Shown here piece after piece: positions 34,101 through 64,000 of a stretch of 64,000 nucleotides of DNA. The notes below the pieces were generated by a model. It saw only the letters and a list, made by a program, of their open reading frames with translations, was not told where the DNA came from and did no database searches. The stretch lies in assembly GCA_963768855.1 (NCBI GenBank), contig CAVYJM010000006.1:192001-256000 (forward strand), given 5' to 3'. The position numbers and the translations under genes are program-made. Positions within the stretch are counted from its first letter, which is position 1, and each line of letters opens with the position of its first letter. Origin of the DNA: an uncultured Thermoplasmata archaeon. Lineage in GTDB: Archaea; Thermoplasmatota; Thermoplasmata; RBG-16-68-12.

Positions 34101-37100
34101 CGCCGAGAGTTGCGTCGTCTGGGTGTACGCCCCGGAAAGATTCAGGGTCGCGAAGCTCTGCGCCGCTCCCAATGCGATCGTGCCCGAGGGGGCCGTGAGA
34201 GTCACCGTGGAGGTCCCGGAGCTGAAGGTGGACGCAGGCCCGGAGGTGTCCCAGGATCCCGAGACCGTGATGGATCCCGTCGTCAGGGACAACATGTCTG
34301 CCGCGGCGTCGTTCATGGTCACGGCGGACACGGAGATCGACGCGGTTGTCCCGATGAAGGCTCCGCCTCCGGAAATGACGAGGCTCGCTCCGCCTGTGAC
34401 GTTGTTGCCCGCCGTCGTCAAGGTCCCCGTGATGGCCAGGGAGCTGCTCACATCGATCGCACTGGCCTGTGTGACCGTGCCCGAGATCGTGAGGCTGTAG
34501 AAGCCGTCGGTGGGATCCAGGATCGTCAACGTGCGCGCCGTTCCCGACATGGTCACCGCGCCGGTGCCCTTCGTGAACGTCGAGCCGGATCCGGAGGTGT
34601 CCCAGTTGCCGCTCACCGTCCACGAGCCGGTCGTCATCGTGATTCTTCCGGAGACGCCCCCGGTCATCGTGACGTCGGCGACGGCAACGGCCGAGGCGTC
34701 TGCGGTCAGGATCCCGGAATTGCCGACCGTCAGGGAGCCTCCCGCGAGAGCGAGGTCCGCGGTCGCCAGGGTCGTGATCGAGCCCGCCGGATCTTGGATC
34801 GTCAGGGTGCCGCTCCACTTCAGGGAGTTGGCGCCGATTGTGAACGTGACCGCGCCGCTGACCGCGGTCGAGGCGAACGTGACGTTGTTGAACTCCTTGC
34901 CGCTGAAGCCCCCTAGGCTCATCGTCTGGGGCGTCGCGGAATTGAACACGACGGTCCCCGTGCCCGCACCCCAGTTCGCCGAGGTGCTGCCGTTGGACCA
35001 GGAACCGCTGAACGTCCACGTCCCGCTGCCCATCCGGAAGTAGGCCGTGGCGCTCGTGATCGAGGTGTTCCCTCCGATGCTCACCAGGGAGGCGGCCCCG
35101 GAACCGTCGAGGACCGCCGTGTCCGAGACGGTCAGGTTGCCCGTGACCGTGAGCCCGGCGCCGGCGGACGTTCCCACGGTGAGGTTCCCGCCCGCCAGCG
35201 TGAGGTTCCCGCCGACCGTGAAGTTGAATGTGCCGACCGCGATCGTTCCCGCCCATCCCGTGGTGCTCAGGGAGGCCATCGTGGCGTTCTGGTCGACCGT
35301 GACCGTACCGCCTCCGGAGTTCGCATCGAAGAAGGTCGCGCTCGCTCCGCCTGGAGCCGGGCAGCCTCCTGCGCCTCCCGAGGTGGCGGACCAGTGCGCC
35401 GAGTCGGACCAGTTGCCCGCGCCGCCGACCCAGTAGCGGGTTCCGCCGCATGGCGCGGCGATGATCACGTCGACCACGGGGTCGGACCCGAGCATGGTGA
35501 AGACCACCTGGCCCGAGCCATCCACCATGCCCGTCGTGAACGCCGTGCCATCCTTCGTGACGTTGAAGCGGTACCCGCTCGTGTTCCCGCCGATTGTAAA
35601 GGTGAGCGTCGACGTCCCGACGGTCGAGGCGTCCGTCCATCGGAACTCGCCGTCCAGAACCCACACGGAGAAGACGCTGACCGTCGTGAGATTGGTCGGA
35701 TCACTGTTCGTGATCGTCAGGTTGACCACGGTGACGACGCCGTCCACAATGCTCCCGGTCCCGGTCTCCGCGAGCCCGTTGAAGGTGAGGTTCTGTCCCG
35801 TCTTCGTCAGAACGGCCCCGTCTGTGATGCTCAGCGTCGCGAGGGCGGTCACGGTGGAACCAAGAGACGCCGTCCCACCGATCGTGAGATCATAGAACGC
35901 CTGCCCCGCCGCGAGGCGGATGGTCGCGGAGGTCCCGAGGAACGTCACCGTGGAGGTTCCGGCGGAGAAGGCCGAGCCGGCGCCCGAGGTGTCCCAGCTA
36001 CCGCCCACGCTCCATGACCCGGTGGTCACCGCGATCGTTCCGGAGGTTCCTCCGATCATCGACACGGCCGTGACGCTGACCGCCGACGCGTTTGAGGTCA
36101 GGATGCCTCCGTTGCCGAGGCTTATCATCCCGCCCGTCAATCCGAGATCGTTCGTGGCGAGGGTCGTGGTCCCGCTTCCTCCCACGATCGTGAAGATTTC
36201 CGCCCACACCACGCCGTTGCCGGCCATGGTGAACGTGACGGTGGAGGCGCCGCTGCTGAAGGTGAGGTTGTAGAACTCGGCTGCACCCCCGGGAAGTGAC
36301 GCGAACCGCATCGTCTGGGACGATGCCGAGGTGAAGGTCACCGTGGCTGTCCCCGCAGACCAGCTGGCGGAGGTCGAGTTGTTCGTCCACGATCCGCTCA
36401 CGGTCCACGTCTCCGATCCGAAGGCGATGTACGAGGATGCGGCGGAGACGGTCACGTTCCCCGCGATGCTGACCGCCCCGGACACGGACGTCAGCGCGCC
36501 TCCGGACAGGATGAGCCCGGCATTCGCGGTCAAAGCGTTCGCACCCTTCACGAACGTTCCGCCGGACAGGGTGAGCAGCCCGTTCGTGGTGAGCGGGCCC
36601 AGGAGGGTCCGCGTGCCCCCGCTGATCGTGACGGCGGCGAGGGCGGCACCCGCCCCGAGGTTGAGGCTGCCGGTGCTCGAGAACGTCACCGAGGAGCCCG
36701 TCCCGGTGAAGCCGGTCGCGGAGGATGTGTCCCAGCTGCCGGTGCTCATCGTGATGGTCGCGGACGCAAAGGTGAGGGTCGCGGCCCCGCTGGAGGTGAG
36801 GTCATTCGTCCCGAAGCTGATGATCGCGCTCGTCAGGGTGAGGGTCCCGCTCCATGCGAGCGGACCGCTAAACGTGGTGGAGATGCCCGGATTGACTGTG
36901 AGGTTGTTGGCGGTCTGCGTGAGGTTGATCGTCCCGCCCGAGGCGATCACGACCACGGTCGATGTACCGACATCGAACGTTCCCAGGTGGGTGTCGATGG
37001 AGGTGACGGTGATCGTGCACCCGTTCGCGGTCAGGGCCCCCGTGCTCGCGAGGACAAGTGCGACGGCCGCAATCGGGAGATTGGATCCGGAGGTGCTCAG

Positions 37101-40100
37101 GATCGTGTTCCCCGTCGGGCTCGCCGTGGAGTTCTGCACGGTGAGGGTGCCGCCCGCCCGGAGTCCGTTGGTCGCCAGGGTGTACGTGACACCGCCCGCC
37201 ACGCTCGCGTCGAATGTGACATTGCCGGCGAACTCCAGCGGCAGGTTCCCGAACGTCATCGTCTGAGATGTGTTGGATCGGAACGTGATCGAGGCCCCGA
37301 AGCTCCACGATGCCGACGTCGAGGAATCCGTCCAGGTGCCGTTCGTGACCGTCCAGGACCCGGCAGGCGACGAGGTGACGTATCCCGACCCGTTGTTCAC
37401 GGTGACGTTGCCCGTCACGATGACGAGGGATGCGTTCGACTTGAGGATTCCCGCGGCTCCGCTCACCGTGAGGCCCGCGCCGGCCGTGAGGGAGTAGTTC
37501 GCGGCGGTCGTGTCGAGCGTGCCGACGACGGTCAGCAGTCCGTTCGCGGTGAACTGGCTGCCGAGCGAATAGCTGCCCGATACGGTGACCGTCGAGAAGC
37601 TTTGCGAAGCCGCAGCCGTTACGGTCTTTCCTGCACCGGTGAAGGAGACGGTCGAGCCCGTTGACGTGAATGCAGTTACCGTGGACGTGTTCCAGTTGCC
37701 CGCGATGTTGACCGTTGCGTTGCTGATCGCGAGCGTCGCGGGACCCGAGGACGTGAGGTCGGAGTTGAACGTCGAGGTGGCCCCGGTGAGGGTCAGGACG
37801 CCCGACCAGCTGATCGCCGACGTGAACGTCGTGCTGACGCCTGGGCTCACGGTCAGGCCGCTCAACGTCTGCGGGACGTTGACCGTCCCGCCGGAGCCAC
37901 CGACGACGAGGGTGGACGTCCCCGGCGCAAAAGTCCCCAAGTGCGTGTCGATGGACGTGATGGTGATTGTGGACCCGTTGGCCGTGAGCGCCCCGCCCGC
38001 AACGACATTGAGCGCGGTGGCGCTGATGGCAAGGTTGGAAACGCTCGTGTTCAAGGTGGTGACCGAGGCGCCGCCGCCGAGGGTGAGCGTTCCGGCGATC
38101 GTCATTCCCCTTGCGGCCAGGGTGAAGGTGACCGCTGACGGCCCCGAGTTGAACGTCACGTTGTTGAGCTCGTTCCCGCTGAGGTTGGAGCCCGCGAACG
38201 TCATCGTCTGGGCCGATGCCGCGTTGAACAGGACCGTCCCGCCTCCGGGATTCCACGACGCCGAAGTGCTGGCGTTCGTCCAAGTCCCCGCAATCGTCCA
38301 GGACTCGGACCCGAAGGAGATGTACGAGGCGGGGGACGAGATGTTCACGTTGCCCGTCACCGTCACGCTCCCCGAGGAGGACGTGATGGCCCCGCCTCCG
38401 AGGGTCACGTTGCCGTTGATGGTGAGGACGTTCGTCCCCTTCGCGAGCGTCCCTCCATTCACGTTCAACGCGGCGGCGGTGATCGCGCTTCCAGCGGTCG
38501 CCGTGCCCGCGGAGATCGTCAGGATGTTGAATGCCTGGGCGCCGCCGAGCGTGATCGTCCCAGAGGCCGCGAAGCTGACCGTAGAGGTGTTCGGGTTGAA
38601 CGCCGCCCCTGCGGCGGTCGACGTCCAGTTGCCGTATACCGTAATGACACTCCCGTTGGCGGTCAACGTGCCGTTCGTCCCGAGGGTGAGGCTTCCGGCG
38701 GTGATGGTCAACGCGGCTCCGGAGGTGTTGAGGACCGTGTTGGCCGTCGGCGTTGCATTGGAGTTGAGAATCAGGAGCGCGCCGGCGATTCTCAGACCGT
38801 TCGTCACCATCGTGTACGCGACGCCGGCTGCAGCCGCGCTATCGAGGGTGAGGTTGTTGAACTCGTTCCCAGCCAGGTTGGTCCCGGCGAAGGTCATCGT
38901 CGCCGCGGAGGCGTCATTGAAGAGGATCGTTCCCGTCCCCGCTGACCAGGAAGCGGACGTGCTCAGGTTAGCCCACGAGCCGCCGATCGTCCAGGTCTCC
39001 GAGCCGAAGGCGATGTACGAGGCGGGGGAGGAGATGCTGACGTTTCCCGTGACGGTCCCAGACCCGGATGTGGAGGTCAGTGCTCCCCCGGACAGGGTGA
39101 GGGCGCCCGCAGCCAAGGTGAAGGTCCCCTTCGCAAGGAGGCCGGCCGACACGGTCAGGGTCGCCGTCACGGTGGTGTTGGCGGCGAGCGTCGCGGTCCC
39201 GGCCGACACGGTCAGGTTGTTGAAGGCCTGGGTCATGTTGATGGCCGCGGCGGCGGTGAAAGCGACCGTACTCGTCGCGGCGGTGAACGTGGCGTTCGCC
39301 GCGGTCACCGTCCAGTTGCCGCCGACGCTGATCGTGGATCCATTTGCCCGTAGCGTCCCGTTCGTCCCGATCGTCACGGATCCTGCGGCGATGCCCAGGT
39401 CGGCGCCCGAGGTGTCGAGGATCGTGTTCCCCGTGGGACCGACGACCGAATTGCGGATGGACAGGAGTCCGGACAGGGTGAGGCCGTTCCCGGCCATCGT
39501 GTAGGTGACGCCCGCGACCGCCGTCGTGTCGAAGGTGACTGCGCCTCCGATCCGTCCCGCTCACCTTGAACGTCATCGTCTGGCTGCTCGCGCTGCGGAA
39601 CGTGATGGGGGCGGGGAACGACCAAGAGGCCGAGGTCGTAGCGTTGGTCCACGAGCCGGTGACGGTCCACGCCCCGGCCCCCGTGCTGGTGATGTACCCG
39701 CTCGCGGCGACGCTCACGTTCCCATTCGCAGCGACGGCCGCGCCCCTCGAGGTGTAGGCTCCCAGGGCTCCGAGGCTCAGGCCGCCCAGAGTGGAACCGT
39801 AGTTCGTGGCGGTTGCGTCCAAGGCAACCACGCCGGTCGCGCCCGCTGCGGTGTTCCGAACCGTCAGGGTCCCGGCCGCCTGGAGCGCGTTGACCTGGGC
39901 ATAGGTGAAGCCGCCGACGACCGAGGAGTCGAGGACGAGGTTGTTGAACTCGCTCCCCGTCGCGGTCCAGAAGGTGAGCGTGGTGGCTCCGGAATCCACG
40001 ATCCGCACGGTTGACGAGGAGACGGACCAGCTGGCGGGGACTGAGATGTTGCTGTTCGTCCACGATCCGTTGATCGTCCAGGTCCCGGCTCCCGTGAACC

Positions 40101-50635: not shown

Positions 50636-53600
50636 ATGGCCCAAGCCATCGAACGCCGGTCCCGGCGAAGCCTCGCAACCGTCCTTCTCCTCCTCGGGGC
50701 GGCGCTCACGCTCACGCCGATTCTGGCCCCGTCCGCGGTCGCTGCGGGCACGACGTACCTGTCCGGGAACGCATGTGCCTCGAGCACCACTCCGACCTGG
50801 GTGAACACGACCACGTACGTCCTAGCCGGGAACGTGACCGTCCCCGTGGGTTGCACGCTCACCATCCAGTCGGGCACGGTCATCAAGGCCGACCCCCAGG
50901 TGCGCCTCTACCTCAACGGCGTGCTCGAGGCGAACGGCACCGCTACGAGCTACATTTCGTTCGACGCGAACCGTACGAGCCAGGTCTGGGGCGGCGTCCA
51001 GTTCAACAAGACCTCCCAGGCCTCCTACCTCCAGTACGCCTCCCTGCACATGGTGGACCACGGCGTCCGCGTCGTCGGAACCCCGCTGTTCTGGGGACCG
51101 ACTCTTTCCCATCTCGACATCGACCATGCGATCGTCGGGGTCGAGTTCCAGGGGGCGAACGCGACGCTGTCCTGGAGCCGAATCAACTACACCACGATGG
51201 CCGTCCACGCCTCCGATGGCGGCTACGGCGGTTACCCGATTATCGTCGCGAACACGATCACGACCGTCCTCTCGAACCCCGCCATCGCCATCTACGCGAC
51301 CAACCTGGTGCAGCCGACGATCCAGTCAAACTGGATTACCTGGGTGAACGGAACGGACGGCTCGGCGGGCGGGGCCTTGCTGACGACCGGCCAGGACGGG
51401 GGCGCGGCCGTGGGCATCCTGGTCACCGGGGGCACCTGGCCAATCGTTGCCGGGAATACGATCAGCCAGGTCCGCGGCGGCCGGGGAGGCGCAGGAGGTT
51501 CGCCTCTCATCTCCGGCAACGGCGGCCGCGGTGGGAAGGGCGGGGACGCGAGCGGAATTGTGATGGCGAACGCCCAGAACTCGAGGGCCCAGACCAACGA
51601 CATCACGGGCGTCGTCGGCGGGCATGGCGGGAACGGAGGGGATGCGAGCGGCCTGGGCACCACCGGCGGCGCGGGTGGTGCGGGCGGCACCGCCATCGCG
51701 ATGGAAGCCCTCGACAACACGGTCACGGGATGGTGGTTCTACAACGACGCCATCGGGATCAGCGGCGGATCCGCGGGAGACGGCGGCGGGGGTCCCCTCT
51801 CGGGCGCCGGTGGGTCCGGTGGCGCCGCGTACGCTCACTTCTTCCTTCAGAACATGGCGGGCAACGCCAGCAACAACCTGGCCCAGACCCTCGTGGGCGG
51901 ATACGGCGGGAACGGGTCCGTCGGCGGCGTGGGCGGGGAGGTCGGCGGCGTCTGGATGGCCGGCATGGGTGGCAGTGGCATCGTGGGCAGCAACACGATC
52001 GCGGGACTCACCGGAGGCCAGGGCGGTGCGGGAGCTCAGCCTACGGCAGGCGGCGGAAACGCGACCGCGCTCCTCCTGATCGGGGACGCAGGCAAGTACA
52101 ACACCACGACCGTCCGGGGCAACACGATCAACGGGATCACCGGAGGCGTTGGGGGCGTCGGCAGCCGCGGCGGCTCGAACGGGGGAGTCGCCACCGCGAT
52201 CGGCGCGGTCTACACGCGCGTCGTTTCGTCTGGGAACACGATCCAGGCGATTACGGGGGGTCAGGGAGGCAGCACGGGTCCAACCTGGACGAACGGCCAG
52301 GGCGGTTCCGCCACGGCCTACGCCGTTGCCCTGACCCCGTCGAGCTCCTCGTCCCAAGATCGGGTCCAGTCCGTCACGAAGGGGCTGCCCGGGTCCGGCG
52401 GGACCAATCCGTCTCCGGCCCAGGCGATCGGCTTCTACGTCCTCGGGAACGCGACCCTCACCTCGGTCGCCTCCCTCACGAACGACACGTTCGCATCCAT
52501 CGGGGAGCGCGACCTCTTCCTCGAGAACTACACGAGGACGACCGCGCTCAACACGACCTTTGCGCCGAGCACGCTTTACGTCGGGCCTGCGGCGAACCTG
52601 ACCGTGCAGAACTTCCTGGCGGTCAAGGTCCTCTGGCCCAACAACGTCACCGCGGTCGCGGGTGCACGGGTCGCCGTCGCGGACAGTGGGGTCGAGGTCT
52701 ACAATCGGACGAGCTCCACGGGGAATCTGAAGTGGATCGTCGTGACGAATCGCGTCTACATCGACAGCGCGATCCCCTTGTGGAACACGACGCGGGTGAC
52801 GGTTAGCTATCTCACCTACACGTTCGGGAACAACCCGCGGACCGTGAACATGACCACGAGCCAGACCCAGTACTTCACGATGATCGACCGAACGCCTCCC
52901 ACGACGGCCATGACCGCCCTGTCCGCGTTCACCACGACGAGGACGTTCACCCTCCACTACTCCTACTCGGATGGCTTCGGAGCCGGAGTCACCAGCGTCA
53001 CGATCTGGGACCGTGTGAATGGGAGCACATGGAACACATACGCAATCATCTCCGTCACCGGCTCCGGGAGCGGGCAAATCTCGTTCACTGCGGCCTCCGA
53101 TGGTCTCTACGAGTTCGCCGCGACGGCGATCGACGCCGCGGCCAACCAGCAGACCCCCGTCCCGCCGACGGCGAACCAGACGTGGACGATCGTCGACACG
53201 ACGAAGCCCGCGTCCCAGGCGACCGCGCTCCCGGCCTGGGAGACGTCTCTCTCCTTCCTCGTGAGCTGGGGTCCCAGCCCGGGCACGACGGACATCGCCT
53301 CGTACACCGTCCAGTACAACAGCACGGGGACGTGGGTGACGTGGCTCAGCTCGACGCTCCTGACCTCCTCCACGTTCACGGCGACGAGCCAGACCGTCTA
53401 CCAGTTCCGGACGCTCGCCCGGGACTTCGCGGGCAACGTCGAGGTGAAGACGGGCAACGACACGTGGACCCTGGTCGACTCCGTGGTCCCGACCTCCGCG
53501 GTCTCCGCGCTACCTAGCTATGAGACGATCGCGGTCTTCTCCATCGCCTGGGGTCCGACGGCGGGCACCTCGGACGTCGCGAACTACACGGTCCAGGTCC

Positions 53601-55495
53601 GCACGGATGGCGGCGCATGGGTCACGTGGCTCTCCGGCGTCACGAACACCTCGGCCACGTTCACGGGCGTCAATGGCCACTGGTATGCCTTCCGCTCCCT
53701 CGCGACGGACGTCGCCGGAAACGTCGAGACGAAGGCGGGGAACGACACGTGGACGACCGTCGACACGAGCCCGCCGGGCTCCCTCGTCGCCTCCCTCCCC
53801 TCCTACGAGACCTCTCTCTCCTTCACCGTCTCCTGGAGCCCCGAGGCCGGGGTCACGGACATCGCCTCGTACCGGATCGAGTACAACCACGGGGCCGGAT
53901 GGGTGTCCTGGCTCGGGGACACCACCGCGACCTCGGCCACGTTCAGCATCGTCGCCCTCGGAATCGTGAGCCCACAGGGCAACTATGCGTTCCGCTCGGT
54001 CGCCACGGACCGCGCCGGGAACGTCGAGACGAAGACGGGCAACGACACGTGGACCGTCGTGGATACGATCGTTCCTACGTCGCTCGTATCCGTCCTGCCC
54101 GCATACGAGACGACCGCGGCGTTCACGGTCTCCTGGAATCCCACCGGGGTCACCTCGGACGTACAGGGCTACACCCTCCAAGTCAGCGCCGACGGCGCCG
54201 CCTGGGTGAGCTGGTTCTCCGGGGCCACGAACCGGAGCGCGACGTTCACCGGCGTCAACGGCCACCGGTATGCCTTCCGCTCCCTCGCGACGGACGTCGC
54301 GGGCAATGTGGAGACCAAGTCCGGGAACGACACGTGGACGATCGTGGACACGACCCCGCCCTCGTCTTCCATGAACGCCCTCCCGCTCTACGAGACCGCC
54401 CTGACGTTCCCGGTGAACTGGGGTCCTGCTCCCGGGACCGCAGACGTGGCGACCTGCGATGTTCAGCTCAGCTTGGATGGCGGCACCTGGACCACGTGGC
54501 TCTCCGGGGTCAACAACCGGTCCGCAGTCTTCTCCGCAGCGAATGGCCACCGGTACGCCTTTCGTTCTCTCGCGACGGATGTCGCAGGCAACGCCGAGGC
54601 GAAGTCGGGAAACGACACGTTCACCTTCGTGGACGCGACCCTGCCGACCGTCGTGCTCGATGCGCCGGAGGGCGCGGGCGTCGACCCGGCTGCCACGCTC
54701 ACGGTCACGTTCAGCGAGCCCATGGACGAAGGGTCCGTGGAACAGGCGTTCTCCCTGTCGCCCAGCATCGATGGCGCCTTCAGCTGGAATGCTGCGGGGA
54801 CCGTCCTCACCTTCACCCCGGCCCGAGCCCTTTCCGCCGGGACGTCGTACACGGTCGTCATCACCCCGGGCGCGAAGGACCTGGCCGGCAACTCCCTGGG
54901 CACGGTCAAGACGTTCACCTTTTCGACCGCGGGCTCGTCGACGGCCGCCGGTTCCTCGTTCGGGGACTGGTGGCCGCTCCTCCTAGCCGTCGTGGTTGGC
55001 GCGATCGTCGCCGTCCTCGTCCTCCTGCGTCGCCGCGGGTCCGCGGCCCAGGAGTTGGCCTCGAAGCCCGCTGCCCCGGCGAGCCCCGCTGCCGGGACGG
55101 AGATCGACGACATCTTCCTCCTCTACAAGGACGGCATCCTGATCAAGCACGAGACCCTGCGCCTGCGGCCCGACATCGACACGGACATCCTGAGCGGCAT
55201 GCTGACCGCGGTCCAGCAGTTCGTCAAGGACTCCTTCCAATCCGAGGACGAGGGCGAGCTGAACGAGATCACGGTCGGTCAGATGCATCTGCACATCGGC
55301 CGCGGCAAGTGGCTCATCCTGGCCGCCCGCGTGGCGGGCGGGGACGTCACGACGATGAACGAGCAGATCCGCAAGGCGATCCAGGACATGGAGGACCACC
55401 ACTGGGACCAGCTCGAGGACTGGGACGGGGACATGGCGCTCTCGAAGGTCCTGGGGCCCTACCTGAAGCGGCTCATCCGCGGCGACTACACGTGA
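50636..55495 (+). CDS. Large cell-surface protein: Gly-rich beta-helix, FN3-like repeats, Ig-like domain, TM, cytoplasmic longin-like domain
   Basis: Signal peptide; GGxGGxGG-rich region; repeated FRxLAxDxAGNVE; VTFSEPMD Ig-like; TM at ~54967-55026; DDIFLLYKDG…LSGMLTAVQQFVKDSF tail. Confidence 0.88.
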   Translation: MAQAIERRSRRSLATVLLLLGAALTLTPILAPSAVAAGTTYLSGNACASSTTPTWVNTTTYVLAGNVTVPVGCTLTIQSGTVIKADPQVRLYLNGVLEANGTATSYISFDANRTSQVWGGVQFNKTSQASYLQYASLHMVDHGVRVVGTPLFWGPTLSHLDIDHAIVGVEFQGANATLSWSRINYTTMAVHASDGGYGGYPIIVANTITTVLSNPAIAIYATNLVQPTIQSNWITWVNGTDGSAGGALLTTGQDGGAAVGILVTGGTWPIVAGNTISQVRGGRGGAGGSPLISGNGGRGGKGGDASGIVMANAQNSRAQTNDITGVVGGHGGNGGDASGLGTTGGAGGAGGTAIAMEALDNTVTGWWFYNDAIGISGGSAGDGGGGPLSGAGGSGGAAYAHFFLQNMAGNASNNLAQTLVGGYGGNGSVGGVGGEVGGVWMAGMGGSGIVGSNTIAGLTGGQGGAGAQPTAGGGNATALLLIGDAGKYNTTTVRGNTINGITGGVGGVGSRGGSNGGVATAIGAVYTRVVSSGNTIQAITGGQGGSTGPTWTNGQGGSATAYAVALTPSSSSSQDRVQSVTKGLPGSGGTNPSPAQAIGFYVLGNATLTSVASLTNDTFASIGERDLFLENYTRTTALNTTFAPSTLYVGPAANLTVQNFLAVKVLWPNNVTAVAGARVAVADSGVEVYNRTSSTGNLKWIVVTNRVYIDSAIPLWNTTRVTVSYLTYTFGNNPRTVNMTTSQTQYFTMIDRTPPTTAMTALSAFTTTRTFTLHYSYSDGFGAGVTSVTIWDRVNGSTWNTYAIISVTGSGSGQISFTAASDGLYEFAATAIDAAANQQTPVPPTANQTWTIVDTTKPASQATALPAWETSLSFLVSWGPSPGTTDIASYTVQYNSTGTWVTWLSSTLLTSSTFTATSQTVYQFRTLARDFAGNVEVKTGNDTWTLVDSVVPTSAVSALPSYETIAVFSIAWGPTAGTSDVANYTVQVRTDGGAWVTWLSGVTNTSATFTGVNGHWYAFRSLATDVAGNVETKAGNDTWTTVDTSPPGSLVASLPSYETSLSFTVSWSPEAGVTDIASYRIEYNHGAGWVSWLGDTTATSATFSIVALGIVSPQGNYAFRSVATDRAGNVETKTGNDTWTVVDTIVPTSLVSVLPAYETTAAFTVSWNPTGVTSDVQGYTLQVSADGAAWVSWFSGATNRSATFTGVNGHRYAFRSLATDVAGNVETKSGNDTWTIVDTTPPSSSMNALPLYETALTFPVNWGPAPGTADVATCDVQLSLDGGTWTTWLSGVNNRSAVFSAANGHRYAFRSLATDVAGNAEAKSGNDTFTFVDATLPTVVLDAPEGAGVDPAATLTVTFSEPMDEGSVEQAFSLSPSIDGAFSWNAAGTVLTFTPARALSAGTSYTVVITPGAKDLAGNSLGTVKTFTFSTAGSSTAAGSSFGDWWPLLLAVVVGAIVAVLVLLRRRGSAAQELASKPAAPASPAAGTEIDDIFLLYKDGILIKHETLRLRPDIDTDILSGMLTAVQQFVKDSFQSEDEGELNEITVGQMHLHIGRGKWLILAARVAGGDVTTMNEQIRKAIQDMEDHHWDQLEDWDGDMALSKVLGPYLKRLIRGDYT
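53194..54632 (+). repeat. Five tandem ~96-aa FN3-like coding repeats
   Basis: Units begin DTTKPAS/DSVVPTS/DTSPPGS/DTIVPTS/DTTPPSS and end GNDTWT; DNA-level similarity visible. Confidence 0.9.
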
Positions 55496-58129: not shown

Positions 58130-59359
58130 GTGAATAATTATCTCCCGAGCAGCGGCGCTTCCCACGCGGACGCGATGCGGGCACGCTTAAGTGGCCTCAC
58201 ACCGTTTCGGGGAGGCGTGGCGGCGGGCCTCGTCTACCATCCGGACTACCTGCGGTACGACTTCGGCGGTGACCACGCCCTGCGGCAGCTCCGAGTGCGC
58301 CTGGCCCGCGATCTCATTGCCGACTACGGCCTCCTCAAGGAGGCGGAGGAGATCCTTCCCATCCCCGCAGGGCCGGAGGCGGTTGCCCGCGTCCACACCG
58401 AGGACTACCTGTCCGTCGTGAAAGACCTGAGCGTCCACCCGAAGGGTGCGGCCTACCAGCACGGCTTGGGCACTGCGGACAACCCGGTGTTCGAGGGGAT
58501 GTACGAGGCGACCCTGCTCCACGTCGGCGGGACCCTGCGCGCCTGCGAGGAGGTCGCTTCCGGCCGCCGGACTCGCGCGATGACCCTGGGAGGCGGCTTC
58601 CACCACGCGATGCGCGACAAGGCGTCCGGGTTCTGCATCTTCAACGATGTGGCGGTGGGCATTCAATCCCTCCTGGAGGACCACAAGCTCCGGCGGATCC
58701 TCTATGTCGACATCGACGCCCACCATGCGGACGGCGTCCAGTCAATCTTCTACGAGGATCCGCGCGTCCTCACGATCTCTCTCCACGAGGACGGTCATTA
58801 TCTCTTCCCGGGGACCGGGTTCACGGACGAAATCGGGGCCGGCGAGGGACGTGGGTATGCGGCGAACGTGCCGCTCCCTCCCTACACCCGGGACGTGTCC
58901 TACCTGTACGCGTTCCAGGAGATCGTGCCCCCGCTCGCTCGCGCGTTCAAACCGGAGCTGATCGTCAGCCAGCTCGGCGCGGACGGTCACTATCTCGACC
59001 CGCTCACGCACCTCATGCTCACCACGGAGACCTACGAGGCCGTCGGCATGATGCTCGACGGACTCTCGAAGGAGCTCTGCGGCGGTCGCTGGATCGCGAC
59101 GGGCGGCGGCGGCTACGAGGTCACAGCGGTGCCGCGCGTTTGGACGGTCATGTTCGCCACGATGAACGGCCGCGAGCTCGAGGACGCGCTGCCCGCGGAG
59201 TGGCTCAGGGAGTGCAACCACCTGGCGGGCTCCGTGCCTCCGGACAAGTCGCTGCGGGACCACGTGCACGCGGAGGAGGAGACCCATGTTCCTCGCGCCG
59301 CGAAACGCGTCGTCGACGAGCTCCGCAAAACGCTGTTCCCTCTCCACGGAATCCGGTGA
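58130..59359 (+). CDS. acuC: Histone deacetylase family / acetoin utilization protein AcuC
   Basis: GGGFHHA, SGFCIFND, YVDIDAHHADG, GADGHYLDPL, GGGGY; true start may be downstream. Confidence 0.92.
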   Translation: MNNYLPSSGASHADAMRARLSGLTPFRGGVAAGLVYHPDYLRYDFGGDHALRQLRVRLARDLIADYGLLKEAEEILPIPAGPEAVARVHTEDYLSVVKDLSVHPKGAAYQHGLGTADNPVFEGMYEATLLHVGGTLRACEEVASGRRTRAMTLGGGFHHAMRDKASGFCIFNDVAVGIQSLLEDHKLRRILYVDIDAHHADGVQSIFYEDPRVLTISLHEDGHYLFPGTGFTDEIGAGEGRGYAANVPLPPYTRDVSYLYAFQEIVPPLARAFKPELIVSQLGADGHYLDPLTHLMLTTETYEAVGMMLDGLSKELCGGRWIATGGGGYEVTAVPRVWTVMFATMNGRELEDALPAEWLRECNHLAGSVPPDKSLRDHVHAEEETHVPRAAKRVVDELRKTLFPLHGIR

Positions 59360-59561: not shown

Positions 59562-59611
59562 ACAAAAGCTTTAATGTCACACGCGAGTTGCTAACACGGG
59601 ACGGGACAAAG
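59562..59611 (+). promoter_or_regulatory. Archaeal BRE/TATA promoter of arc operon
   Basis: AAAAG-C-TTTAAT at 59563-59575; GGGACAAA direct repeat at 59559 and 59603; GGTGA RBS 6 nt before ATG 59699. Confidence 0.55.
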
Positions 59612-59698: not shown

Positions 59699-61258
59699 AT
59701 GACCAACGACGAGGTCGACGAGAAGGTGTCCAAGTCGGCGGAGGATGTGCGCGATGAGTTCGAGGAGAAGATGGACCGGCTCCGTCGCCAGTACGAGCGG
59801 GACCTCCACTCCTTCCGCTACGAGATTGAGGAACGGGAATACCGCCTCAAGGCGTACGAGGACAAGTTCAACAAGATCAAGCAGCCCCCGCTCCTGTACG
59901 CCTACGTCATCCGCAAGGAGGGGCCGGACATGGACGGAAACCAGGTCGTGGTCGCCCGCGCCACAGAGCTCCTGAAGGTCTCCACCGGCCTCGCGGACAA
60001 GACCCAGCTCCAGGTCGGACAGTACGTGTGGGTGCACCCCCAGACCTACGCGATCGTCGAGGGGAGTGCCGTCCGCAACGAGGGAGTGATCGCGAAGGTC
60101 GTGGACATGATCGACGGCAAGCTCGTCGTGTCGGTCGAAGGGGACATGGAGAAGCGCCTCGTGTCGTGCGACAAGTCCGTGTACAAGAAGCTGAAACCCG
60201 GATTCCAGATCAGCGTGCTTCCTCCGACGATGGAGGTCCTCGACATCCTCCCGAACTTGGAGGTGAAGTCTCTCCTCCTCGGGGAGAAGCCGAACGTCTC
60301 CTATGCGGCGATCGGCGGGCTCTCCGAGATGATTGAGCGCATCAAGGACGTCGTGGTCCTGCCCTACCGCGAGGCGAAGCTGTTCGAGCAGATCAAGCTC
60401 GAGGCCCCGCGCGGCATCCTGCTCTACGGCCCGCCGGGCTGCGGCAAGACCCTCCTGGTGAAGGCAATCGCCACGGAGAACGACATGACCTTCTTCAACG
60501 TCAGCATCGCGGACGTCCTCTCGAAGTGGGTGGGGGAGTCCGAGCGGATCATCAAGGAGATTTTCCGCCAGGCCCACGAGAAGAAGCCGAGCATCGTTTT
60601 CTTCGACGAGATCGAGGCCCTCTTCACGGTCCGGGGGATGATGGACACGTCGGGCGTGCACAAGAACATCATCGCTCAGATCCTGAGCGAGATGGACGGC
60701 CTGGTCCGCCTGCATGACGTGTTCGTGATCGGAGCGACGAACCGCGCGGACCTCGTCGACCCCGCGTTGCTGCGGCCCGGACGCTTCGACGAGATCATCG
60801 AGATTCCGAGGCCCGAGCGGGCCGCCGCGGAGGAGATCCTCAAGATTTACCTGACGGACGACCTGCCGCTCGCCGTGGACGTGGTCCAGGAGTACGGCGG
60901 CCGCTCGGAGGCCGCGCAGGGTCTGCGGCGCTTCGTCCTGGACGAGCTCTATGGCGAGAACAAGTGGGTCAAGGTCAAGCTGGACGCCGAGGCGAACGAG
61001 GCGATCAAGACGGTCAAGCGGAAAGACATCATCTCCGGCGCGATCATCGAGGCCATCATCAAGACGGCGAAGAAGAACTACGTGAAGCGTGTGATCGCCC
61101 TGAAGAAGGGCGACCGGAAGAAGGAGGGCCTGACGGCGCGGGACCTCGAGATGGCCATCGAGGAGGAATGCAAGGAGCACGCGATCACGGAGATGTACAT
61201 CTACGAAAAGCGGCAGCGGGAGGTCTTCCGGACCGGCGCGGACCCGATGGTCGGGTGA
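59699..61258 (+). CDS. arc: ARC/Mpa-type proteasomal AAA+ ATPase
   Basis: N-terminal coiled coil, QPP, two OB-like segments, VSYAAIGGL, GPPGCGKT, KWVGE pore loop, FFDEIE, LLRPGRFD, ARC-type insertion and SGAIIEAIIKTAKK helix. Confidence 0.85.
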   Translation: MTNDEVDEKVSKSAEDVRDEFEEKMDRLRRQYERDLHSFRYEIEEREYRLKAYEDKFNKIKQPPLLYAYVIRKEGPDMDGNQVVVARATELLKVSTGLADKTQLQVGQYVWVHPQTYAIVEGSAVRNEGVIAKVVDMIDGKLVVSVEGDMEKRLVSCDKSVYKKLKPGFQISVLPPTMEVLDILPNLEVKSLLLGEKPNVSYAAIGGLSEMIERIKDVVVLPYREAKLFEQIKLEAPRGILLYGPPGCGKTLLVKAIATENDMTFFNVSIADVLSKWVGESERIIKEIFRQAHEKKPSIVFFDEIEALFTVRGMMDTSGVHKNIIAQILSEMDGLVRLHDVFVIGATNRADLVDPALLRPGRFDEIIEIPRPERAAAEEILKIYLTDDLPLAVDVVQEYGGRSEAAQGLRRFVLDELYGENKWVKVKLDAEANEAIKTVKRKDIISGAIIEAIIKTAKKNYVKRVIALKKGDRKKEGLTARDLEMAIEEECKEHAITEMYIYEKRQREVFRTGADPMVG

Positions 61259-61261
61259 GCG

Positions 61262-62560
61262 ATGAAGAAGATGGTCCAGGGGACCGAGCACGAGTACACC
61301 CTGTTCTGTCGCAGGATGGGGTCGATGGGGTTCGATCCCCACACCGTGGCGCTGGATCTGCTCCGCGAGAGCGACCTCCACCTCGCAGGCGAGTACATCA
61401 CGAACGGCTCGCGCGTCTACTACGACGTCGGGCACTTCGAGGTCAGCACGGCCGAGACGACGAACTTCCACGACGTCGTCGTTTGGGAGAAGGCCGGGGA
61501 GAAGGTCCTCGACTGGCTCCGCCGGGTCATGGAGGACAAGTACACGGACGGGTCCACGAAGATCCACGCGTTCAAGAACAACACCTCGCCCGACGGCACG
61601 TCCTACGGATCCCACGAGAACTACTGCGTCGCTCGCGGCGTGCCGTGGCCGGGCCGCTTCGTCCGGGACCTCGTCCCCCATCTCTCGACGCGGGTTATCT
61701 ACACCGGCGCGGGCGACATCATCCGCGGAAAGTACGTCCTGTCGCCGATGGCCTTCCTCACCTCCCAAGTGATCAGCGGGGAGACGATGCACGACACGGG
61801 CATCCTGAACACGCGCGATGAGCCGCATGCGGACGGCCGCCTCTGGCGTCGCCTGCACGTCATCGTGGGGGACGCCCTCATGAACGAGACGGCGATCATG
61901 CTGCGCCACTTCACGACCTCCGCCGTCCTCCAACTCATGGAGGCGGACGGCCTGAGGGACGTGCCCCGACTCAAGGACCCCGTCCGCGACCTGTGGCACA
62001 ATGTCGAGACCCGGATCCCGGACCAGTGGCGGATCGAGCTCGAGGACGGATCCGTCGTGTCTCCGATCGACATCCAGCGGTACTATCTCTCAAAGGTCGA
62101 GCCGCTGGTCGAGGACGCGTGGGAGAAGCGCGCCCTGAAGACCTGGGAGGAGGTCCTCGACGACCTGGAGAACCGGCGGTCGAAGGAGGCCGCCCACCGC
62201 GTCGAGTGGCTGGACCGATGGTTTGCCATCCAGGCCGCCACGGAGGACAAGGAAGGCCCCGACGTCGAGATGATGGCGTGCAAACAGTACTCCGAGATCG
62301 GTGCGGAGCGCTCCCTGTTCTACAAGAGGCAGAGGGAAGGCCTCGTCGACCGGATCACGGACGACGAGACGATCAAGGCCGCGATCACGACGCCACCGGA
62401 CGACACCCGTGCACGTCTTCGCCGGGAACTTTGCGACACCTTCAATATCGAGATGATTGATTGGTCTGTACTGGTCGTGAACGACGGGAGCCGGCGGCGG
62501 ATCGATCTTCCGGATCCGTACGCCACAAAGTTGGAGGCGACCTATGCCACTGCAGGTTGA
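61262..62560 (+). CDS. pafA: Pup-ligase/deamidase (PafA/Dop) family enzyme
   Basis: GTEHEY, TNGSRVYYDVGHFE, FKNN, SYGSHENY, NTRDEPHAD, RRLHVIVGD, PPDDTRARLR, IDW. Confidence 0.93.
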   Translation: MKKMVQGTEHEYTLFCRRMGSMGFDPHTVALDLLRESDLHLAGEYITNGSRVYYDVGHFEVSTAETTNFHDVVVWEKAGEKVLDWLRRVMEDKYTDGSTKIHAFKNNTSPDGTSYGSHENYCVARGVPWPGRFVRDLVPHLSTRVIYTGAGDIIRGKYVLSPMAFLTSQVISGETMHDTGILNTRDEPHADGRLWRRLHVIVGDALMNETAIMLRHFTTSAVLQLMEADGLRDVPRLKDPVRDLWHNVETRIPDQWRIELEDGSVVSPIDIQRYYLSKVEPLVEDAWEKRALKTWEEVLDDLENRRSKEAAHRVEWLDRWFAIQAATEDKEGPDVEMMACKQYSEIGAERSLFYKRQREGLVDRITDDETIKAAITTPPDDTRARLRRELCDTFNIEMIDWSVLVVNDGSRRRIDLPDPYATKLEATYATAG

Positions 62561-62720
62561 GGAGAAGCCGAAGAAGCGCAAGAAGCAGGAGAAGAAGCTA
62601 GAGTTCGAAGCGGGAAAGGTCTTCAGCCCGGGTGAAGTGAAGGAAGAGGACTTCGAGCTCGACCTCGACTCGGCACGGTATCGGGCATCGAAAGGGGAGG
62701 GCGGCGATCGCCGCGCTTGA
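62544..62720 (+). CDS. Pup/UBact-like small charged protein with 6-residue C-terminal extension
   Basis: My translation MPLQVEEKPKKRKKQEKKLEFEAGKVFSPGEVKEEDFELDLDSARYRASKGEGGDRRA*; GGAGG RBS at 62533-62537; overlaps ligase stop; not in ORF track. Confidence 0.7.
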   Translation: MPLQVEEKPKKRKKQEKKLEFEAGKVFSPGEVKEEDFELDLDSARYRASKGEGGDRRA

Positions 62721-62783: not shown

Positions 62784-64000
62784 ATGGCCACCCACGTGGA
62801 CACCTTGGAGAACGGCCTCAAGGTGATCCTCCGCCCCATGCCGGACACGAAGGCCCTCTCTTGCTGGGTCACGTACCGCGTCGGCTCCCGCAATGAGGTC
62901 CCCGGCATGACCGGCTCGACGCACTGGGTCGAGCACATGCTGTTCAAGGGAGGCGGGAAGCTCAAGAAGGGCGAGATCGACCGCCTCATCAGCCGGGTCG
63001 GCGGCAAGATGAACGCCTTCACCGACACGGACTTCACGACGTACTTCGAGACAATCCCCGCGTCCGAGATGGACACGGCCCTCATGATCGAGTCCGAACG
63101 GATGCGGAACGCCGCCTTCGATCCGAAGGAGGTCGAGGCGGAGCGGACCGTCGTGATCAGTGAGCGGGAGGGCGCGGAGAACCAGCCCGAATTCCTCGCC
63201 GAGGAGGAGCTCTGGGGCCTCGCCTTCCACGTGCACCCGTACCACTGGACCGCGATCGGGTACAAGCAGGACCTGGCCAAGCTGGACCGCGACCCTCTCT
63301 ACCAGCATTACCTCCGGTACTACGCGCCGAACAACGCGTTCCTCGTCCTCGTGGGCGGCTTCGACCCTGCGGTCGCGATGCAGCACATCCGGGAGTCCTT
63401 CTCGCCCCTGAAGCCCGAGCCGATCCCTCCGGTCATGCGCCTCGTGGAGCCGGAGCAGCACGGGGAGCGCCGGAGTGACCTCGAACGGCCCGGGGCGACG
63501 GACCTCTTCAGCGTCGGCTGGCACATCCCGCCGTTCGTCCACGAGGACACGCCCGCGCTGATCCTCCTCGCGACGATCCTGGGCGGTTGGCATGGGCTCA
63601 CCCCCTTCGCCGCGGGCGACTGGCACTCCCGCTCAAACCGGCTGTACCGTGCGCTCGTCGACGCGAAGCTCGCGACGGACGTCGGCGTGCGGCAGGAGCT
63701 GAAGCTCGACCCCGCGCTCCTGATCGTCAGCGCGACCCTCGCGGGCAAGATTCCGCTGGACCGGGTCGAGCACGTCCTGGACCGCGAGGTGGACCGCCTG
63801 CGCAAGGCCCCGCCCTCCAAGGCGGAGATGGACCGCGCGAAGCGGCAGGTTCGCTCGTGGTACCGCTACGAGCACGACGGGGTGACGTACCAGGGGATGC
63901 TCCTGTCCACGCTCGAGGCCCTCTCCGGCTGGGATGCGGGGGAGGGCATCCTGACGAAGGTCGACCGGCTCCGGCCGAACCACGTGCGGGAGGCCGCGCG
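62784..64000 (+). CDS. M16 family zinc peptidase (pitrilysin-like), truncated by window edge
   Basis: LENGLKV, YRVGSRNE, HWVEH (HxxEH), MNAFT; TTTAT 27 nt upstream; not in ORF track because no stop in window. Confidence 0.92.
   Translation, partial: MATHVDTLENGLKVILRPMPDTKALSCWVTYRVGSRNEVPGMTGSTHWVEHMLFKGGGKLKKGEIDRLISRVGGKMNAFTDTDFTTYFETIPASEMDTALMIESERMRNAAFDPKEVEAERTVVISEREGAENQPEFLAEEELWGLAFHVHPYHWTAIGYKQDLAKLDRDPLYQHYLRYYAPNNAFLVLVGGFDPAVAMQHIRESFSPLKPEPIPPVMRLVEPEQHGERRSDLERPGATDLFSVGWHIPPFVHEDTPALILLATILGGWHGLTPFAAGDWHSRSNRLYRALVDAKLATDVGVRQELKLDPALLIVSATLAGKIPLDRVEHVLDREVDRLRKAPPSKAEMDRAKRQVRSWYRYEHDGVTYQGMLLSTLEALSGWDAGEGILTKVDRLRPNHVREAA

Follow-up and report, generated by a model that had tools for sequence, protein, structure and literature searches.

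A three-gene module encoding an ARC/Mpa-like ATPase, a single Pup_ligase-family enzyme and a small charged protein is conserved in a soil archaeon and in many of its relatives from two classes of the Thermoplasmatota. We lean towards reading this module as an archaeal counterpart of Pup/UBact tagging, in which an unfoldase, one enzyme and one small protein would act together and lysines would be tagged covalently via the Glu or Gln at position 52 of the small protein. Archaea are thought to depend on SAMP/ubiquitin-like tags in combination with PAN and Cdc48. In the literature searched, Pup-type tagging is described for bacteria only, and no Pup-like system is mentioned for archaea; with a single-enzyme module of this kind conserved in two classes of Thermoplasmatota, archaea would gain a second tagging chemistry.

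Gene organization and genomic context

The three genes form one operon-like set on the forward strand of the window, i.e., the whole stretch of 64,000 nucleotides that was analysed (Table 1). The TGA of the first gene is followed after a gap of 3 nt by the ATG of the second, the third gene starts 17 nt ahead of the stop of the second, and Shine-Dalgarno-like sequences are found 5' of the first gene (GGTGAT, at 8 nt) and of the third (GGAGG, at 6 nt). The ORFs and HMM searches bear out what the first-pass annotation had described, namely an ARC-like ATPase, a PafA/Dop-family enzyme and a small charged ORF tightly spaced on one strand. Its observation that prcA, prcB and a second ligase-family gene are absent from the locus holds as well, and the whole genome (93.6% complete) contains one Pup_ligase gene only. 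The AAAAGCTTTAATGT box is a plausible BRE/TATA element for the ATPase-led genes.

Table 1. Position of the module and of neighbouring features in the window.
Feature	Position	Strand	Remarks
Histone-deacetylase-family (lysine deacetylase-like) gene	58130..59359	+	directly 5' of the module
Candidate BRE/TATA promoter AAAAGCTTTAATGT	59566..59579	+	~120 nt 5' of the ATPase start; read from sequence
ARC/Mpa-like AAA+ ATPase, 519 aa	59699..61258	+	AAA 7e-41, Prot_ATP_ID_OB_C 4e-08
Single Pup_ligase-family (carboxylate-amine ligase) enzyme, 432 aa	61262..62560	+	Pfam Pup_ligase
Small partner protein, 58 aa, candidate tag	62544..62720	+	charged ORF
Codons K50-G51-E52-G53-G54-D55-R56 of the small protein	62691..62711	+	family motif [K/H]G[E/Q][G/A]GxR
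M16 peptidase gene	62784..64000, continues past the window end	+	63 nt 3' of the small ORF

Two further genes flank the module. The histone-deacetylase-family gene is a kept neighbour in several families, and a functional link would be putative. The M16 peptidase gene adjoins the module solely in the window's own family and is therefore not a core part of it; its candidacy as a core maturase was rejected on the same ground.

The locus is situated on a contig of 1.127 Mb, 330 kb from a full-length archaeal SSU rRNA gene (582583-584049, 1494 bits), and no GC break was found along the window or the contig; the composition is host-like, and the first pass had noted a host-like codon style. An artefact of assembly or binning, by which a bacterial piece was fused to an archaeal contig, might be suspected from the estimated contamination of the bin (7.7%) and from a bacterial-type PafA on a short contig (G007:C74) in the bin of one relative. 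Against such a chimera stand the even GC of this 16S-bearing contig, the recurrence of the locus together with its neighbours in dozens of related archaeal genomes, and the low identity (at most 37%) of bacterial homologues to the sequences of the locus, so that we regard the probability of an artefact as negligible.

Phylogenetic distribution of the module

Within the window's class (301 genomes), the enzyme was found in 26 genomes and the small protein in 27; both are confined to the same five of the families sampled. These five belong to the seven families of the window's order, of which f2 and f3 are without both proteins, and most genomes of the positive families carry the system. All 18 loci examined at the order level have their genes arranged as ARC-enzyme-small ORF, and so does locus L077, where the enzyme is 57% identical. 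In a second class of the same phylum at least seven families possess the system; there the enzyme shows ~51% identity, the cognate small ORF is the next gene in 5/5 loci, an ARC-like gene lies 1.4-5 kb off in three genomes, and no peptidase is conserved alongside the enzyme/small-protein pair. The small ORF stands beside homologous ligases wherever the enzyme occurs in both classes, and the related genomes confirm a genuine, vertically inherited archaeal module rather than the sporadic occurrence that had been assumed initially.

The gene of the small protein is real and under strong purifying selection, with a dN/dS of ~0.05 and 14, 13 and 52 variable sites at the first, second and third codon position, respectively, among 14 orthologues. 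Moreover, soil metatranscriptome contigs from two studies span the entire operon including the small ORF with 85-99% likeness; they document its presence in RNA libraries of relatives, where DNA carry-over is possible.

Sequence features and phylogeny of the enzyme

The enzyme scored 302 bits with Pfam PF03136 Pup_ligase (cut-off 25), and with 261 bits for PafA (TIGR03686) and 256 bits for Dop (TIGR03688) it reached neither of the equivalog cut-offs, 551 and 492, respectively. The GTEHE (GhExE) motif at G7-T-E-H-E11, D55, which aligns with D94 of Dop, and the motifs SYGSHENY, NTRDEPHAD and RRLHVIVGD do not vary among 26 archaeal enzymes and are common to solved Dop, PafA and a bacterial homologue. 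The archaeal module shares with the actinobacterial Pup system (Mpa/ARC, Dop, Pup, PrcB, PrcA, PafA) a glutamine-synthetase-like enzyme of the Pup_ligase family with all catalytic motifs. The loop around the catalytic Asp reads YYD55-VGH-FE, without the extra residue of the PafA type (signature D-V-G-S-H) and without the D-H-A-H signature of Dop. The Dop loop of ~37 residues is absent as well, since residues 1-32 of the enzyme align with Dop 1-~42 and residue 33 with Dop 72. With equal PafA and Dop scores and an alpha-loop like neither, the sequence favours neither a ligase nor a hydrolase.

Whereas actinobacteria possess the paralogues Dop and PafA, the one archaeal enzyme falls into neither clade. 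The archaeal enzymes form a separate clade with a stem of ~2.2-2.6 substitutions per site, outside Dop in the best tree and outside the PafA clade (SH-aLRT 97-99%); the branch that joins them to the tree has 22% support, and constraining them with Dop was not rejected by the AU test (p = 0.595). No bacterial homologue found exceeded 37% identity to the enzyme, and a look-alike search of a sequence atlas returned generic Pup_ligase clusters only. The proposal that the system was domesticated from bacteria does not follow from this long branch and low identity. Because the archaeal enzyme lies outside the Dop/PafA split, it bears on the open question whether ligase or hydrolase activity arose first (Hecht et al., 2020, PMC7947786). 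The single Dop/PafA homologue of some Planctomycetes, which served as outgroup in the same study, is ~30% identical to Dop and PafA and, like the archaeal enzyme, is described as single-copy and as lying outside both clades. The insert of the membrane-anchored enzyme variants of Rhodopirellula (Iyer et al., 2008, PMC2588565) is lacking in the archaeal enzyme.

In a UBact locus of the 'Candidatus Poribacteria' phylum, ARC, a Dop-like enzyme and UBact are followed ~2 kb on by a second enzyme, whereas the archaeal loci hold only one. The archaeal loop D-V-G-H-F-E is like D-M-G-H-L-E of this second enzyme; in the tree, the archaeal clade groups robustly with neither of the UBact-locus enzymes.

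It might be argued that the enzyme acts only in hydrolysis or deamidation, like Dop, without ligation, and that the locus is the remnant of a tagging system. The best PDB matches favour Dop (1.5e-52) over PafA (7.6e-47), the tree with the archaeal clade beside Dop was not rejected, and position 52 of the small protein is more often Gln. However, the enzyme has neither the Dop loop nor the DHAH signature, and its catalytic loop resembles that of the additional enzyme of UBact loci, which is not Dop-like. The strong purifying selection, the fact that enzyme and small protein are strictly inherited together in two classes and the lack of any other ligase in the genome also argue against a remnant, and a deamidase without a recipient for its product is hard to explain; we consider pure hydrolysis very unlikely.

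The small partner protein and its predicted complex with the enzyme

The small protein, which judged by its composition is probably disordered, contains a basic KKRKK run, the segment LEFEAGKVF, an acidic DFELDLD and the C-terminal part SARYRASKGE-GGDRRA. Its gene directly follows that of the enzyme, as pup follows dop in actinobacteria. Among family representatives, G54 is invariant, R56 is present in at least 90%, and position 52 is occupied by Q in 60 and by E in 27, with swaps between the two even among close relatives. E/Q alternation at the reactive position is a hallmark of Pup, and E52, which shares it, is the presumed reactive residue, internal rather than C-terminal. Following KG[E/Q], the sequence GGDRR[A/T/S/G] is found in 18/18 order-level copies, and AGTR plus five residues in the second class. 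Family-wide, the tail past the motif ranges from 2 to ~70 residues, whereas in ligase-adjacent copies it is conserved and comprises 2-5 residues. The E/Q of Pup is C-terminal, in contrast to the archaeal E/Q with its six conserved residues behind, and no residues past the terminal E/Q occur in known Pup and UBact (Iyer et al., 2008, PMC2588565).

None of 16 orthologues of the small protein matched the Pup HMMs (PF05639/TIGR03687) at E up to 10, and no Pup match was obtained anywhere in the host genome. Likewise, the UBact HMM (NF033388) gave no match at the locus, Pfam and NCBIfam gave none for the small protein, and the sequence atlas contained no look-alikes of it. The hhalign probabilities were 0.6-3% against Pup and <1% against UBact; the Pup-versus-UBact positive control attained only 6%, so that the power of this comparison is low for proteins this short. 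In a local profile alignment, ARYRASKGE falls in register with the end of UBact, RRYRQRTGE; the ten residues ahead of E/Q are alike in the archaeal protein and in UBact of Gram-negative bacteria (ubiq_like_UBact), S-x-R-Y-R-x-x-x-G-E, and one Gly, not two, precedes E/Q in both, but UBact stops exactly at E (...R-T-G-E). None of these sequence tests places the ORF, called 'pup-like' in the first-pass annotation, in the Pup or UBact families, and its E/Q is internal.

For the complex of enzyme and small protein, structure prediction gave a score of 0.78 (median of three runs; best control 0.00). Of 80 solved complexes 58 attain this mark, as do 2 of 110 mismatched pairs. Since solved Pup complexes (PafA-Pup, Dop-Pup) exist, the score shows likeness only and may reflect resemblance to those structures. 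Contact agreement between runs was at least 17%, and the pLDDT of the partner was at least 30, reaching 69 in two good runs. [quoted passage not shown] In the model, its residues 17-56 contact enzyme residues 11-17, 55-58, 100-118, 163-179 and 326-376, which belong to the cradle, to the loop of the catalytic Asp and to the groove at the C-terminus, and residues 39-56 lie entirely in the interface. Taken as a whole, enzyme and small protein very probably constitute a functional pair.

Proposed mode of tagging and alternative functions

According to the tagging model, the small protein would occupy the enzyme's groove and its beta-sheet cradle, and the enzyme would use ATP to activate the gamma-carboxylate of Glu52, Gln forms being deamidated first. 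The activated Glu52 would then be attached to target proteins at their lysine side chains, and the ARC-like ATPase might recognise and subsequently unfold the tagged proteins. The reactive E/Q would be placed inside a glycine-flanked turn, G-E/Q-G/A-G-x-R, with the tail following. Two routes may be envisaged. In the first, the side chain would be ligated with the tail retained, which is chemically allowed, as it is the gamma-carboxylate rather than the alpha-carboxylate that reacts in Pup ligation. A tag attached through an internal residue, its tail left free, would represent a new design of protein tag. Proximity-labelling tools already use PafA and Pup, and an internal-residue tag could serve such tools as well.

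In the second route, the tail would be trimmed by a peptidase before ligation. This sub-variant of tagging treats the small protein as a precursor, comparable to those of ubiquitin, that would be cut after G51-E/Q52 and whose terminal Glu could be ligated in the manner of Pup only thereafter. A fixed motif with tails of variable length would be expected at a processing site, and peptidase genes recur near members of the family, M16 downstream in the window's family and, in three genomes of a single genus, the gene order M20-M29-small ORF. On the other hand, these linkages are limited to that one family and that one genus, and no peptidase is conserved with the pair in the second class. Few positions of the family are as conserved as those after E/Q (G/A-G-x-R), and the modelled contacts of residues 39-56 would suit a segment recognised by the enzyme better than a tail that is thrown away; trimming appears possible but doubtful.

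Alternatively, the small protein might not be a tag but the enzyme's own substrate or regulator, which is deamidated, cyclised by joining E52 to its own lysine, employed as an inhibitor or adaptor, or processed in the manner of a RiPP precursor, the variable C-terminal part yielding the product. A conserved 'leader' in front of a hypervariable, sometimes Cys-rich C-terminus resembles RiPP precursors, peptidase neighbours are present, and orphan copies lie distant from ligase genes. In ligase-adjacent copies, however, the tails are short and conserved, not hypervariable, the locus contains neither a transporter nor RiPP enzymes other than the ligase-family one, and the linkage of an ARC-type unfoldase in both classes fits tagging better than peptide maturation. 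We therefore give such functions little credence and retain tagging as the preferred reading.

Tagging of this kind would share with archaeal SAMP/ubiquitin-like conjugation the labelling of proteins for proteolysis, but fold and chemistry are unrelated: SAMPs are beta-grasp proteins whose C-terminal Gly is adenylated by E1, in contrast to a glutamine-synthetase-like ligase acting through a gamma-glutamyl phosphate.

The ATPase and the 20S proteasome

The ATPase consists of a coiled-coil-like N-terminal segment, an OB domain and an AAA module, and the actinobacterial Pup system likewise has an AAA+ unfoldase that combines a coiled coil with an OB domain. It scored 353 bits with NCBIfam pup_AAA versus 273 bits with PAN; the Mpa/ARC equivalog cut-off (TIGR03689, 505) was missed at 353 bits, with model positions 24-482 of 512 covered. 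Its C-terminus, ...TG(A/S/T)DPMVG, is conserved order-wide, and a docking tail of the HbYX/GQYL type with a penultimate Tyr is absent from all orthologues of the order; the ATPase of the second class ends in ...EGVEVM. UBact-locus ATPases also lack the penultimate Tyr, while the actinobacterial system differs by its GQYL tail and by the prcBA genes that are missing from the archaeal locus.

Unlike actinobacterial Pup hosts, the archaeal host has its own PAN, Cdc48 and 20S proteasome. PAN (...MYA) and one Cdc48 (...YYR) of the same genome both end in HbYX. Two alpha and two beta 20S genes are located away from the locus (a fifth match duplicates alpha2), and the alpha subunits show, by eye, the archaeal-type N-terminal motif. 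The assumption in the first pass that the module feeds the native archaeal 20S proteasome finds no support, since the ATPase is without the HbYX/GQYL tail that PAN and one Cdc48 keep, and we view delivery of substrates to 20S with some scepticism. The beta2-alpha2 20S pair was considered as a dedicated protease and rejected, since it occurs only in f1/f6 and the enzyme also in f4/f5/f7.

Orphan and virus-like copies of the small protein

Paralogues of the small protein also occur far from ligase genes, some of them near peptidases and some on contigs that resemble those of head-tailed viruses (metagenome contigs only). A scan of IMG/VR with two alignments of the small protein yielded no confirmed relatives. 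One may speculate that the internal Glu/Gln tag carries a free, cargo-bearing tail, that the family has diversified in keeping with this, and that the virus-like copies are conjugated by the host enzyme or jam it; we hold this to be unlikely. If it were true, these copies would be the first Pup-like modifiers known to be encoded by viruses. Their occurrence on virus-like contigs suggests an involvement of mobile elements with the system. The tails of orphan copies extend up to ~70 residues, and some of them end in a zinc-ribbon-like CxxC...CxC.

Organization of the locus and its host

The first-pass annotation had read an arc - pafA/dop - pup-like operon from the sequence alone, and the three tightly packed plus-strand ORFs are present as described, with a 3-nt spacer between genes 1 and 2 and a 17-nt overlap between genes 2 and 3. 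SD-like motifs precede gene 1 (GGTGAT) and gene 3 (GGAGG), and a TTTAAT box, A-rich on its 5' side, can be read about 120 nt upstream of gene 1. Using Pfam and NCBIfam profiles, we found AAA and proteasomal-ATPase OB domains in gene 1. Its score was higher for the bacterial pup_AAA (Mpa/ARC) model (353 bits) than for PAN (273 bits), and neither score reached the curated cut-off. The product of gene 2 falls clearly within the Pup_ligase family (302 bits) and scored equally against PafA (261 bits) and Dop (256 bits), in both cases far below the equivalog cut-offs. Gene 3 had no match among Pfam or NCBIfam models.

Homologues of the upstream histone-deacetylase-family gene occupy the same place in five related loci from several lineages (L071-L075; enzyme identities 67-80%), which may reflect a link to lysine-directed tagging or mere inherited synteny. 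The downstream M16 peptidase gene is a neighbour in the family of the window only.

Coordinates of the operon and associated features (window positions unless a contig or locus is named)
Feature	Position	Strand	Remarks
Gene 1, ARC/Mpa-like ATPase	59699-61258	+	519-aa product
Gene 2, Pup_ligase-family enzyme	61262-62560	+	432-aa product
Gene 3, small protein	62544-62720	+	58-aa product
Histone-deacetylase-family (lysine deacetylase-like) gene	58130-59359	+	directly upstream of the ATPase, same strand
Second adjacent 20S pair, beta2 then alpha2	G000:C11:7352-8600		loci L004/L005; outside the window, besides standard alpha and beta genes
Divergent small-protein members on virus-like contigs	L029:284-502; L030:1899-2117; L031:2270-2446; L032:2702-2947		

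The host is archaeal and the locus native, with no sign of a chimera: GC is even along the 1.127-Mb contig (C6, of which the window spans 192001-256000), a full-length archaeal 16S rRNA lies 330 kb from the locus, and the closest enzyme homologues (>120 clusters, 72-93% identity, some labelled 'PafA2 family protein' by NCBI) come from Thermoplasmata/'Methanobacteriota' MAGs including RBG_16_68_12. The source genome (2.87 Mb, 24 contigs, 93.6% complete, 7.7% contamination) has a single Pup_ligase gene in a genome-wide profile search, and elsewhere encodes a canonical PAN (590 bits), two Cdc48-type ATPases and four 20S genes. Contigs from three soil metatranscriptome runs, belonging to two studies, span the entire operon at 85-99% likeness, and some of them cross the junction of enzyme and small ORF or that of small ORF and M16; since these contigs come from relatives, transcription of the operon is only likely.

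Distribution of the enzyme and the small protein

Among 301 sampled genomes of the class, 26 carry the enzyme and 27 the small protein. Both are restricted to one set of five families of the window's order (f1, f4, f5, f6, f7), with no hits in any other family sampled; f2 and f3, within that order, have neither. Sampling across the phylum added 21 genomes of other classes (at least seven families) with the enzyme, which in family f40 occurs in 8/9 genomes. In a second class of Thermoplasmatota the enzyme is about 51% identical, and a cognate small ORF (...DFDLDLDAARFQGKKGQAGTR plus 5 residues) follows it in 5/5 loci inspected, where a small gene that looks winged-helix-like by eye precedes it. 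The small ORF is thus kept next to homologous ligases in both classes. In three genomes an ARC-like ATPase (350-372 bits) is encoded 1.4-5 kb from the second-class enzyme; enzyme and small protein therefore form the conserved core, to which the unfoldase is linked more or less tightly.

Downstream of two enzyme homologues at 52% identity (L079:1498-2781 and L080:8-1024) no small ORF was found. The latter comes from a MAG labelled Proteobacteria, on a 245-kb contig (GC 0.70) that may be mis-binned or mislabelled.

The small protein

Gene 3 is genuine: 14 orthologues give a dN/dS of 0.05, with 14, 13 and 52 variable sites at codon positions 1, 2 and 3. Searching 1.84 billion representatives with a profile yielded 93 family members. 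Their common features are a basic stretch at the N-terminus, the segments (L)EFxAGKVF and DFxLDLD (the latter acidic), and the pattern xARYKAx-[K/H]G-[E/Q]-[G/A]-G-x-R, after which come another 2 to ~70 residues of tail. G54 never varies and R56 hardly does. The key position, that of the presumed reactive E52, is Q in 60 and E in 27 representatives, and the two are exchanged even between close relatives. The reactive residue of Pup shows the same alternation, and Pup carrying Gln has to be deamidated before ligation. In Pup and UBact, however, E/Q is by definition the last residue, which does not hold for the archaeal protein. A G[EQ] C-terminal signature has been described (Iyer et al., 2008, PMC2588565).

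The ten archaeal residues ending in E52, SARYRASKGE, resemble the UBact end SRRYRQRTGE, drawn from 30 bacterial loci, and a local profile alignment pairs the two in this register. Profile comparison gave a probability of <1% against UBact and 0.6-3% against Pup, and has low power because the control of Pup against UBact reached only 6%; the resemblance is not significant.

The enzyme

All catalytic motifs of the enzyme are invariant among the archaeal sequences, and alignment to Dop revealed no Dop loop. The catalytic loop (Y-Y-D-V-G-H-F-E) is Dop-like in length and PafA-like in V-G; its closest pattern is Y-I-D-M-G-H-L-E, in the second enzyme of UBact loci. At the positions discriminating Dop from PafA (Hecht et al., 2020, PMC7947786) the enzyme is a mosaic: S-T-A follows the loop, and the alpha-loop resembles that of neither. 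Phylogenies of 66 and 81 sequences group the archaeal enzymes into a single clade (100% SH-aLRT, stem ~2.2-2.6 substitutions per site) outside both the Dop and PafA clades. Their placement relative to the two UBact-locus enzymes has only 22% support, and the AU test does not reject a grouping with Dop (p = 0.595); identity to any bacterial enzyme is at most 37%.

UBact occurs in 56/61 sampled genomes of the phylum of a 'Candidatus Poribacteria' genome. Loci L180-L187 have the order ARC-like ATPase (ending ...VI/AI, no Tyr), Dop-like enzyme (DHAH) and UBact, with the second enzyme (loop D-M-G-H-L-E) about 2 kb beyond. The Poribacteria genome itself (G339) has a separate classical Pup locus too.

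Predicted complex and proposed mechanism

Prediction of the enzyme - small protein complex gave a median score of 0.78 (three runs, one at 0.00), the best of three controls being 0.00; the score mark was reached by 58/80 solved complexes and 2/110 mismatched pairs. Runs agreed in at least 17% of contacts, with a partner pLDDT of at least 30 (69 in the two high-scoring runs). In the small protein, residues 17-56 are predicted to contact enzyme residues 11-17 (first cradle strand), 55-58 (catalytic-Asp loop), 100-118 (SYGSHENY region), 163-179 (alpha-loop region) and 326-376 (C-terminal domain). This supports binding in the model, where the small protein is predicted to occupy the Pup groove and to place its KG-E/Q-GG segment at the cradle. 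PafA-Pup and Dop-Pup complexes have already been solved; the high score therefore expresses likeness to that binding mode and is not proof.

The archaeal Pup-like module is real and conserved. Its ligase-family active site is intact, enzyme and small protein are co-inherited and adjacent in two classes, and both purifying selection and E/Q alternation are evident. E52 would be activated as a gamma-glutamyl intermediate in an ATP-dependent step and then ligated to lysines, Q forms might be deamidated by the same enzyme, and the ATPase would recognise and unfold the tagged proteins. The literature searched, including Iyer et al. (2008), Hecht et al. (2020), Mueller and Weber-Ban (2019) and the 'Ca. 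Yaplasmales' (RBG-16-68-12) genome paper, makes no mention of such an archaeal system.

Relation to the native 20S proteasome

It had also been proposed that the system may feed the native 20S proteasome. All ATPase orthologues of the order end in ...TG(A/S/T)DPMVG and those of the second class in ...EGVEVM; neither end has the penultimate Tyr of GQYL/HbYX, whereas in the same genome PAN ends in MYA and one Cdc48 in YYR; direct gating is thus not supported. ATPases of the UBact loci inspected likewise end without Tyr. At an identity of at least 66%, orthologues of alpha2 from the second 20S pair were confined to families f1 and f6, and the pair is therefore not co-distributed with the Pup-like module; its near-identical copy on another contig (C17) suggests strain duplication in the bin.

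Orphan and virus-like copies

Several genomes of ligase-bearing families carry extra, more divergent small-protein copies with longer tails. In three genomes of one genus (G183, G203, G320) orphan paralogues have proline-rich tails: two directly follow M20 and M29 metallopeptidase genes by Pfam (L064:8972-11667, L066:6776-9485), and the third (L067:6781-9490) has neighbouring ORFs matching these in size and order only. One orphan copy adjoins toxin-antitoxin genes, and some tails show CxxC...CxC patterns.

Profile scans of IMG/VR found no confirmed relatives of the small protein. Family members lie on a 60.7-kb JGI metagenome contig with portal and Mu-F genes, on contigs with a phage-type exonuclease and TFIIB or with ThyX and a DNA methylase, and, in L029 and L030, amid portal (weak), HNH endonuclease and major head protein genes. 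Several virus-like contigs have a GC of 42-49%, much below the host order.

Elsewhere in the window, a 3771-aa ORF without Pfam match (28182-39497, minus strand), within a stretch of strongly negative AT skew (-0.38 to -0.44), may encode a giant surface or repeat protein, and a 1619-aa ORF with Big_5 and fn3 domains (50636-55495, plus strand) probably encodes a large extracellular protein.
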